Part shown: positions 42,762-44,685 of the stretch, in pieces
How the letters are laid out: every line of letters starts with the position of its first letter
Numbering within the stretch: the stretch's first letter is position 1
Origin: a virus
Lineage: Duplodnaviria > Heunggongvirae > Uroviricota > Caudoviricetes
Reading direction: 5' to 3' (one strand)
IMG/VR virus record: IMGVR_UViG_3300031134_000466
DNA length: 64,000 nucleotides
Program-made: the position numbers and the translations under genes
Notes under the pieces: generated by a model
What the model was told of the DNA's origin: nothing
The model's database searches: none
What the model saw: the letters and a program-made list of their open reading frames with translations, nothing else

Positions 42762-42790
42762 TTGTCTTATCCCCCAAAATGGTGTACTAT
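42762..42790 (+). promoter_or_regulatory. dnaK promoter: -35 TTGTCT / 17 nt / -10 TACTAT
   Basis: The spacing is canonical. An inverted repeat tGTACTatgAGTACa (42783-42797) overlaps the -10. Confidence 0.55.
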
Positions 42791-42825
42791 GAGTACATAA
42801 CCGAAAAAGAAAGGGTGAAATACAA

Positions 42826-44685
42826 ATGGCTCGTGCCGTAGGAATTGACTTAGGAACAACAAACAGCTGCGTATCCGTACTTGAAGGTGGAGAACCTACA
42901 GTAATCGCAAACGCTGAAGGTATCCGCACCACCCCATCAGTCGTAGCTTTCGTAAAGAACGACAAAGAAGTACTTGTTGGAGAAACAGCCAAACGCCAGG
43001 CTGTCACGAACGTAGATCGAACCATCCGTTCAGTGAAGCGTCACATGGGAACCACATGGACCCAGGAAGTTGACGGCAAAAAATACACCGCTCAGGAAGT
43101 CTCTGCTCGCATTCTGATGAAGCTCAAGAAAGATGCTGAAGCTTACCTTGGTGAAGATGTTGACTCAGCAGTCATCACAGTCCCAGCGTACTTCAACGAC
43201 GCTGAGCGTCAGGCAACAAAAGAAGCTGGTGAAATCGCTGGGTTGAAAGTTCTTCGCATTGTGAACGAACCAACAGCAGCTGCCATGGCCTACGGTCTGG
43301 ACAAAGCTGGTGAAAGCGAAACCGTTCTTGTGTACGACCTCGGTGGTGGAACCTTCGACGTTTCTTTGCTTGAAGTAGACAAAGATGAAGATGATGGTTT
43401 CGCTACCATCCAGGTAAAAGCAACAGCTGGTGACAACCGACTCGGTGGTGATGACTGGGACAACGCTATCATCGGTTACGTCAACGAACAGTTCAAAGCC
43501 TCAACTGGTGTTGACCTCAGCAAAGACAAAATTGCTCAGCAGCGTATCCGCGAAGGTGCAGAGCAGGCCAAGAAAGAACTCTCTTCTGGCTCAAACACCA
43601 CCATCCAGCTACCTTACATTTCTTTGACAGCTGAGGGTCCGTTGAACCTGGAGCAGGCTCTTAGCCGTGCTAAGTTCGAAGAGATTACCAAGTCTCTGCT
43701 TGAGCGCACTAAAAAGCCTTTCGAGCAGGTGCTTGCTGATGCTAACATCTCTTCCGACAAGATTGACCACGTTATCCTCGTCGGTGGTTCAACCCGTATG
43801 CCGGCTGTTGTTGAGATGGTTACTTCGATGACAGGCAAAAAGCCTTCACAGAATGTGAACCCTGACGAAGTTGTTGCTCTTGGTGCAGCAATTCAGGCTG
43901 GTGTGGTCAATGGTGAGCGTAAAGACGTTCTCCTTATTGATGTTACTCCTCTTTCCTTGGGTCTGGAAACAGCTGGTGGTGTTATGACCAAGCTCATCGA
44001 ACGAAACACTGCTATTCCTACGACTCGTAGCGAGACTTTCACTACAGCTGTAGATAACCAGCCTTCTGTATCCATCCAGGTGTTCCAGGGTGAGCGTGAG
44101 TTCACTAAGGACAACAAGAAGCTTGGTCAGTTTGAGCTAAGCGGTATTGCTCCTGCACCTCGTGGTTTGCCTCAGATTGAAGTCACTTTTGATATTGATG
44201 CAAACGGTATTGTTCATGTGTCCGCTAAGGACAAGGGTACTGGTCGTGAGCAGAAGATTACTATCACTGGTGGTTCTTCACTGTCCAAGGCTGACATTGA
44301 CCGCATGGTTCGTGATGCTGAAACTCACGCTTCTGAGGATAAAGCTCGCCGTGAAGCACAAGAGCTTCGTAACAACGCTGAGCAGCTGGCTTATAGTGCT
44401 GAGAAAGTTGTCGCTGAACATGGTGATAATATCCCAGCTGAAGTGAAGACTGAAGTTGAAGATGACATCAAAGCAGTGAAGTCAGCTCTTGAAGGAACTG
44501 ATGACGAAGCCGTCAAAACAGCCGTAGACCGCCTGAATGCGTCACAGCAGAAGATTGGTCAAAGCCTGTACGGCGGACAGGCACAGGCAGCCTCAGAGCC
44601 TGCTGAGCCTACTGCAGAGCCTGCAGCTGCAACTGAAGATGATGAAGACATCATCGACGCTGAAGTTGTTGAAGACGAGAAGTAA
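42826..44685 (+). CDS. dnaK: Hsp70 chaperone DnaK (full length)
   Basis: 619 aa. '[14 protein letters not shown]', '[10 protein letters not shown]', '[11 protein letters not shown]', substrate-binding and lid domains, acidic C-terminus 'DAEVVEDEK'. Confidence 0.97.

Follow-up and report, generated by a model that had tools for sequence, protein, structure and literature searches.

The window analysed here is a stretch of 64,000 nucleotides from an IMG/VR record assigned to the Caudoviricetes (IMGVR_UViG_3300031134_000466), and the subject of this study is a stand-alone dnaK gene within it, together with the short intergenic region that precedes the gene. The locus is fixed in at least five lineages of related replicons, referred to below as the giant elements and, where single loci have to be told apart, by L numbers. 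The genes follow each other in the order RNA ligase (opposite strand), small genes, DnaK, RNase H, an Exo_endo_phos protein, NucS, PNKP and RNA ligase, and the same arrangement is found in the fifth, more divergent lineage, L185 (75%). The features at and around dnaK are as follows.

42714-42758, + strand: long hairpin enclosing the HAIR-like repeat, terminator of the upstream gene; 20-bp stem flanked by an A-run and a T-run, of bidirectional type
42726-42746, no strand: HAIR-like repeat CCTGAGT-CACCACG-ACTCAGG, putative site for host HspR; two mismatches from the consensus
42762-42767, + strand: -35-like hexamer TTGTCT; ATGACC in the sister lineage; conservation weak (0.54)
42778-42790, + strand: AATGGTG block and -10 hexamer TACTAT (TAnnnT; 42785-42790); pairwise identity 0.86 (block) and 0.71 (hexamer)
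42783-42797, no strand: inverted repeat TGTACT-atg-AGTACA, overlapping the -10 and lying between it and the start site; no second copy of the full 15-mer in the window
42809-42817, + strand: Shine-Dalgarno region GAAAGGGTG; AAGGGT invariant in all lineages, pairwise identity 0.87
42826-44685, + strand: dnaK coding sequence, 619 amino acids from an ATG start; nucleotide-binding domain, linker VLLIDVTPL, substrate-binding domain, lid and acidic C-terminal tail
44698-44741, + strand: terminator-like hairpin with a 20-pair stem, found by terminator scan, closing the dnaK transcript
44758-44799, both strands: second hairpin, a terminator hit in either direction of the scan and common to the convergent gene at 44798-45427 (- strand)

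The DnaK protein and its co-chaperones

The original prediction, made from the letters of the window, described a complete 619-amino-acid Hsp70 with an N-terminus of actinobacterial type, and both statements were borne out. The product matches the Pfam HSP70 profile (PF00012) over its full length with 771.7 bits (E 5.3e-232), DnaK of Mycobacterium tuberculosis (6w6e) aligns with residues 1-617 (E 2e-248), and the DnaKs of Microbacteriaceae are 73-75% identical to it. An alignment with E. coli DnaK, in which the residue numbering is self-consistent, indicates that the catalytic core is intact: the ATPase and phosphate-loop residues D8, K70, E171, D194, T199 and D201 of E. coli are identical in the window protein. 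The DnaJ-docking residues R167, N170 and T173 are retained as R144, N147 and T150, and the interdomain linker (VLLIDVTPL, pattern VLLxDVTPL) and G32 of the GrpE loop are likewise kept. At one position of the substrate arch, A383 (approximately 43972-43974), E. coli has M404 and both M. tuberculosis and the Microbacteriaceae have lysine, whereas all giant-element lineages have alanine. This appears to be a derived change common to the elements and could alter substrate kinetics.

Selection on the protein is strongly purifying. The ratio of nonsynonymous to synonymous divergence (dN/dS) is 0.008-0.024 within lineages, at a dS of 0.26-0.47, and about 0.1 between lineages, where synonymous sites are saturated. 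The best explanation is a virus-borne or virus-like DnaK of host origin that has been retained as a working chaperone, its activity being predicted from the protein and supported indirectly by the purifying selection. That the gene encodes a functional DnaK, anciently derived from a host and now resident in a giant phage-like element, is very probable.

The gene is monocistronic. It is followed by a terminator and a convergent gene, and the grpE, dnaJ and hspR genes that lie 3' of dnaK in the canonical actinobacterial operon are absent from this position and from the window. The downstream hairpin at 44698-44741 has the properties of an intrinsic terminator (a stable hairpin and a U-tract after the stop codon), and the three hairpins at 42714-42758, 44698-44741 and 44758-44799 agree with the earlier description of a gene bracketed by terminators. 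No DnaJ, GrpE, GroES, HspR or ClpB was found in Pfam scans of the open reading frames (ORFs) of the window, nor by tblastn. The search for co-chaperones that had been proposed was extended with Microbacteriaceae proteins over 307 kb of clade DNA, where tblastn returned no homolog of the co-chaperones, HspR or ClpB at E<=1. The claim that GrpE and DnaJ are not adjacent is thus correct, and neither is found anywhere in the window.

Lack of partners is not peculiar to this locus. At least 499 stretches in IMG/VR encode a DnaK, and contigs of 200-360 kb are the source of several. In 77 of the 80 best of these loci neither DnaJ nor GrpE lies within 6 kb; a stand-alone dnaK is therefore the norm for virus-borne copies. 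With this number of stretches, and with a DnaK already described in moraphages, the statement that Hsp70 genes are rare in phages proved to be overstated. None of the same 80 loci has a HAIR or CIRCE element upstream of dnaK.

The upstream repeat and the dnaK promoter

HspR, the repressor of actinobacterial dnaK operons, binds an operator termed HAIR with the consensus CTTGAGT-N7-ACTCAAG (PMC6102357). The repeat at 42726-42746 is the only match to this consensus at two or fewer mismatches in the 64 kb, where 0.25 would be expected, and the chance of a match falling within 120 nt of dnaK is roughly 5e-4. It is centred some 61 nt before the predicted transcription start, and 15 nt separate it from the -35 downstream. 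As validation, the same scan recovered CTTGAGC-N7-ACTCAAC beside a TTGACA -35 before cellular dnaK and a perfect HAIR before clpB. The original prediction had reported no match to HAIR or CIRCE; this holds for the small palindrome over the -10, but the hairpin that it had called a terminator contains the HAIR-like repeat. CIRCE (TTAGCACTC-N9-GAGTGCTAA) was considered and rejected, as its only match with three mismatches (2508-2534) lies within a coding sequence and has all mismatches in one arm.

Four other lineages have their best or only HAIR-like match in the corresponding position, at a distance of 98-102 nt from the ATG:

L014: CTTGAGT-TGGGTCC-GCTCAAC
L005: GTTGAGC-TGAGTCC-ACTCAAC
L013: GTTGAGT-TAGGTCC-GCTCAAC
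L016: GTTGAGT-CGGGCAG-GCTCAAC

Across lineages the arms have an identity of 0.76-0.79, similar to the -10 and the Shine-Dalgarno sequence, compared with 0.39 for the spacer, and the TGAG...CTCA core of the arms is invariant in 8 aligned sequences (lineages of the window, L005, L013, L014 and L016). The cellular dnaK promoters examined (L017, L018 and L105) contain two HAIRs, of which the proximal one covers the -10 and start site, and the TTGTCT of the window sits where TTGACA follows the distal HAIR in these promoters. We conclude that the repeat most probably originated as the distal HAIR in a dnaK promoter of Microbacteriaceae and that its sequence as such has since been preserved.

A different account is that the repeat is nothing but a terminator, or a decaying relic of a promoter, and that dnaK is expressed constitutively or on a phage schedule from the TAnnnT element, with no input from HspR. 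In the window lineage the hairpin at 42714-42758 is indeed very stable (RNA fold of -28.1 kcal/mol, z -11.3) and has the U-tract of an intrinsic terminator directly after the upstream stop codon. Several observations weigh against HspR control in the same way. Both arms in the window lineage are altered symmetrically (T to C in one, A to G in the other), which preserves RNA pairing, and at about -28 kcal/mol the hairpin makes an excellent terminator, so that terminator function alone could explain conservation within the lineage. None of the giant-element lineages has a second HAIR-like site, at four or fewer mismatches, close to the -10 or the start site, and because only the distal HAIR is kept, repression by HspR may be weak or absent. 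In L185 there is no HAIR at four or fewer mismatches; what is left is a remnant, GCTGAGC-N7-TATCAAC, 14 nt upstream of the -35, with a degenerate right arm.

On the other side, terminators constrain pairing and not sequence, whereas TGAG...CTCA is invariant in all eight sequences. The hairpin reaches a mere -9 kcal/mol in L005 and L013, and in L014 the arms lie outside the minimum free energy (MFE) fold. L016 has neither a U-tract at the repeat nor a co-directional upstream gene, and in L185 a separate terminator precedes the remnant. Since the arms persist where the hairpin is weak or absent, hairpin stability does not seem to be the property that is conserved, and the resemblance is to the known operator of this very gene family, at the chance level given above. 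We therefore regard the terminator or relic account as a serious but clearly less likely alternative, and place the odds of HspR control of dnaK somewhat above even.

Two further features of the intergenic region were observed. The hairpin loop (42733-42739) is an exact reverse complement between strains, CACCACG as against CGTGGTG (L004, L009-L011), which has the appearance of a loop flip. Otherwise the dnaK intergenic region is far more conserved than dnaK synonymous sites (pS 0.22).

The promoter proposed for the gene, TTGTCT and TACTAT with a 17-nt spacer, is present letter for letter, and the position of the TAnnnT -10 is conserved. The pair scores just 8 of 12 against the sigma-70 consensus, which is under the threshold of the scan. 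GTGTA...T is invariant in all eight aligned upstream sequences, and CAT.A at the expected start site is conserved across lineages. The string TGGTGTAnnnT was considered as a general promoter of the element and rejected, with three occurrences in the window that are not consistently upstream of genes.

The palindrome at 42783-42797 had been put forward as a possible operator, and a site for a phage or host repressor might be suspected from its overlap with the -10 and the predicted start site and from the uniqueness of its 15-mer. This idea found no support. Perfect inverted repeats with 6-bp arms and loops of 0-8 nt number 226 in the window, or 3.5 per kb. In L009 and L012, whose DnaK is 99% identical, the sequence reads TGTACTATAAACTCA, with the right arm changed at 5 of 6 positions, while the rest of the intergenic sequence is that of the window except for the flipped hairpin loop and one substitution beside the upstream stop codon. 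In the alignment of eight sequences the palindrome is absent from all other lineages (identity of the right-arm segment, 0.54), and its half-site is not repeated at other promoters. The palindrome is a strain-specific chance feature without a role, and a function as operator is extremely unlikely.

Origin of the gene and nature of the replicon

The named cellular proteins that best match the window DnaK, at 73-75% identity, are from Leifsonia, Rhodoglobus, Microcella, Lacisediminihabitans and Parafrigoribacterium, all of them Microbacteriaceae. At the Microbacteriaceae loci L017 and L018, dnaK heads a dnaK-grpE-dnaJ-hspR operon that encodes a MerR-type HspR and has clpB nearby. The operon is lacking in the window, where the gene lies in a mobile, phage-like element. 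GC content at third codon positions (GC3) of dnaK is 43-54% in the elements (43% in the window) and 89-91% in cells, so that the gene is fully ameliorated and its capture must be old. At 41 alignment columns of DnaK with an invariance of 97% or more among cellular sequences, all three main lineages of elements depart from the cellular residue, with the same derived residue at most of these columns. The derived residues held in common argue for a single acquisition, and the evidence points to dnaK having been acquired once from Microbacteriaceae-like Actinobacteria.

The phylogeny that had been suggested as a check gave weak neighbour-joining (NJ) support for a clade of element DnaKs (bootstrap 5/30). 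This speaks against a single origin and is apparently due to the long-branch members P0022 and P0033 being counted as cellular. Monophyly is accordingly argued here from derived residues and synteny instead of the NJ bootstrap. The element DnaKs evolve about three times faster than cellular copies.

Other genes bear on the identity of the host. For an ArsP_1 (YraQ-type) permease at 36527-37519, all named cellular relatives (51-55%) are from Microbacteriaceae. It is thus probably another gene of host origin besides dnaK and serves as an independent marker of the host; together with a DUF1980 gene it forms a pair at 36527-38231 on the + strand. The gene directly upstream of dnaK is listed below with other features of the window.

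41294-42706, + strand: secreted-protein gene with signal peptide, Pro/Glu/Thr-rich repeats, LAYTG, hydrophobic segment and RR tail
39328-40449 (- strand), 54122-55363 (+ strand), 50774-51706 (+ strand): T4-type RNA ligases (three in the window) and PNKP, a tRNA-repair toolkit that flanks dnaK in all lineages
18430-21147, + strand: 905-amino-acid ORF with deoxynucleoside monophosphate (dNMP) kinase, Hint/intein-splicing and C5 cytosine DNA methyltransferase domains, an apparent intein-bearing fusion
26372-27676, + strand: PARP with WGR and PARP domains, 40% identical to those of the jumbo phages XacN1 and Xoo-sp13, its best phage relatives

The LAYTG motif, hydrophobic segment and RR tail of the upstream gene have the form of a sortase cell-wall sorting signal, and LAxTG-type signals are associated with Actinobacteria. 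The protein varies in length among near-identical strains (470, 487 and 492 amino acids) and is missing at that position in the 80% lineage. The RecE-like domain encoded in the window has its best phage matches among actinophages. We infer from DnaK, the permease, the sorting signal and the relatives of the RecE-like domain that the host is Microbacteriaceae-like; the indirectness of this assignment is a point against the interpretation given below. The HAIR, the phylogeny of DnaK and the sorting signal together offer a sequence-level host marker for this uncultured clade.

The window has a GC content of about 45% throughout, is about 93% coding and contains roughly 70 genes on both strands. 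It carries genes for replication, nucleotide metabolism and host takeover, as is typical of phages, and lacks cellular genes for translation. Besides the genes listed, it encodes a RecE/YqaJ-type exonuclease, a DnaB-C-like protein, RNase H, NucS, dCMP deaminases, the small subunit of ribonucleotide reductase and MazG. The element is accordingly taken to be a giant phage-like replicon, its phage status being inferred from gene content.

Several side observations concern the gene content. PARP forms part of an NAD-centred set with two NAD synthase genes and at least three genes resembling ADP-ribosyltransferase toxins. The ORFs at 1636-2751 and 2847-4235 (both + strand) have identical strings of 12-13 nt near their 5' ends and apparently paralogous N-termini; in the second there are DUF285 repeats, and its PHROG matches are to proteins of very large size and unknown function. 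For the 590-amino-acid ORF at 24311-26083 no phage homolog was found.

The related replicons are far larger than the window. Clade members have been assembled at 788,683, 828,331, 858,429, 878,612, 880,409, 880,603 and 883,042 bp (loci L005-L007, L009 and L013). The nearest non-identical DnaK relatives (79-80%) are on contigs of 828-883 kb, and a member of the 90% DnaK cluster of the window is on the contig of 788,683 bp. The contigs of 788,683, 883,042 and 880,409 bp are Ga0308164_10000007, Ga0308161_1000006 and k141_483817 (ERZ27247389), respectively. In the assemblies of the sister lineage (880,409, 880,603 and 883,042 bp) dnaK lies at different offsets, and the nearly equal sizes with differing offsets suggest a complete circular or circularly permuted replicon of about 0.88 Mb. 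The largest phage genome listed in a 2026 review is 735 kb, a record that these replicons would exceed if the clade is viral. Their size is the most surprising observation of this study, although it lies outside the finding itself.

A size of 0.79-0.88 Mb is also that of a small cell, and the window could in principle be a piece of chromosome, with the housekeeping DnaK of a reduced-genome organism of about 0.9 Mb and not of a mobile element. No capsid, portal, terminase, tail or other virion or packaging gene was found in the 64-kb stretch; the word phage thus rests on gene content, which is a point against a viral interpretation. The clade is likewise absent from IMG/VR: a single-protein scan returned no member, and an alignment-based scan found only DnaKs of 57% identity or less. 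A chromosome, however, is hard to reconcile with 64 kb that are devoid of tRNAs, rRNAs and all Rfam families, lack grpE, dnaJ and hspR, and include many individually scanned ORFs without a Pfam or PHROG match. The RNA ligases, PNKP, dNMP kinase, intein-bearing methyltransferase, RecE/YqaJ exonuclease, PARP, NAD synthases and ADP-ribosyltransferases are typical of large lytic phages. Moreover, no GTDB species genome carries the clade (best match 73%, Parafrigoribacterium), and the faster evolution of its DnaK sets it apart from cellular copies. The large contigs, all of them syntenic with the window around dnaK, are not host chromosomes, and a chromosomal origin of the window is very improbable.

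Attempts to place the clade more widely gave little. Megablast of positions 42000-46000 against INPHARED phages yielded no match, and none was found in the literature on giant actinobacterial phages. Two further contigs of the lineage of the window were among the matches listed in a metagenome scan. A search for an extension with the genes at the ends of the window returned only 3-kb contigs or no record. No genome-specific repeat was recognised, as k-mers of 14 nt and longer are all non-recurrent. IMG/VR contigs that share the RNA ligase (35%) were rejected as relatives, having no other window gene in common.

Predicted regulation and comparison with known systems

Bound at HAIR, and with DnaK acting as its co-repressor, HspR keeps dnaK operons repressed; titration of DnaK or unfolding of HspR brings its release (PMC10415612). 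The interpretation that best accounts for the locus is as follows. An ancestor of the giant elements would have captured dnaK with part of its promoter. Host RNA polymerase would transcribe the gene, and host HspR, with DnaK as co-repressor, would gate it at the HAIR, so that expression would rise once infection titrates free DnaK. The conserved docking residues suggest that the protein would work with host DnaJ and GrpE, in folding or assembling a very large viral proteome or replication complexes. In the window lineage the same repeat, lengthened by A and T runs, would also terminate the upstream gene. We give this reading as a whole, a host-derived and working DnaK under putative control by host HspR, a probability of about 0.6, on the strength of sequence comparison. 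Against it, the remainder of a genome of roughly 0.8 Mb may encode an HspR, DnaJ or GrpE of its own.

A second possibility is that the viral DnaK is mainly a regulator or an agent of counter-defence and not a general foldase: in excess, the HspR co-repressor would shut off host dnaK, clpB and lon, or it would disrupt a chaperone-dependent defence. The role of DnaK as co-repressor makes such a use conceivable (PMC10415612), phages are known to manipulate heat-shock control, as reported for RB43 Rki (PMC3486835), chaperone-dependent defences have been discussed for moraphages, and the substrate-arch change from M404 in E. coli and lysine in actinobacteria to alanine is common to all element lineages. 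However, the element protein has kept its whole foldase machinery and all its co-chaperone contacts, and purifying selection on them is strong; a pure regulator would not need the full set. A mainly regulatory DnaK is therefore improbable, if less so than a chromosomal origin of the window.

More speculatively, phages of 0.79-0.88 Mb infecting Microbacteriaceae-like hosts may have wired a captured DnaK into the HspR circuit of the host. As DnaK is the co-repressor of HspR, the viral protein could then hold the host dnaK, clpB and lon regulon shut. This extended scenario is tentative, and we would not expect it to hold in full.

Host-derived DnaK in large phages is already documented, and the gene by itself is an additional example. 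Of more consequence, if true, is that the retained HAIR would make a viral chaperone respond to the proteotoxic load of infection. The locus would then be a concrete and testable case of a virus that plugs an auxiliary chaperone into host stress sensing through a regulator whose co-repressor is DnaK itself. The evidence suggests that the operator of a host repressor was captured with the gene and long kept, which would be new relative to known phage dnaKs.

The closest counterpart is the HAIR of actinobacterial dnaK operons (Streptomyces, Mycobacterium; L017, L018 and L105 in this study), which has the same 7-N7-7 repeat just upstream of the -35. The HAIRs of an element and of a cell can be nearly identical (GTTGAGC-TGAGTCC-ACTCAAC in L005 and CTTGAGC-CGAGTCG-ACTCAAC in L017). 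Unlike the cellular operon, the element gene is monocistronic, has the distal HAIR only, a shorter 5' leader and a GC3 of 43% versus about 90%, and lies in a giant phage-like replicon, with the HAIR extended into a terminator in the window lineage.

Phage auxiliary genes under the boxes of host transcription factors are familiar from the pho boxes and NtcA sites of cyanophages. There, too, a host-derived phage gene has a site for a host regulator, and viral expression is coupled to the state of the host. In the present case the putative regulator is HspR, the gene encodes the repressor's own co-repressor, and the arrangement is known from sequence alone.

The presence of DnaK in large phages as such has precedents in moraphages, in the ATPases of huge phages, and in Lak and other huge phages. 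In moraphages, which are large aquatic phages, DnaK nests in the lineage of the predicted host and has been read as the capture of a host-derived chaperone (PMC12619734). The window element resembles them as a large phage-like replicon with a DnaK of host-lineage origin. In moraphages the donor is Flavobacteriales, DnaJ is often co-encoded and capture of an operator is unreported (PMC12619734), whereas the window element has an actinobacterial donor, no J-protein seen and a putative HspR operator that has been kept. Huge phages and Lak megaphages (LR7565xx, MK2500xx), as well as some 500 IMG/VR contigs, share the feature of a stand-alone dnaK in very large genomes. Their DnaKs are merely 44-57% identical to that of the window, a distance that argues for independent acquisitions.

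Phage RB43 also acts on host Hsp70 and on heat-shock control: its J-domain protein Rki is reported to intervene in the host Hsp70 and heat-shock circuit (PMC3486835). RB43 encodes a co-chaperone and uses the DnaK of the host, whereas the window element encodes DnaK and presumably uses the co-chaperones of its host.

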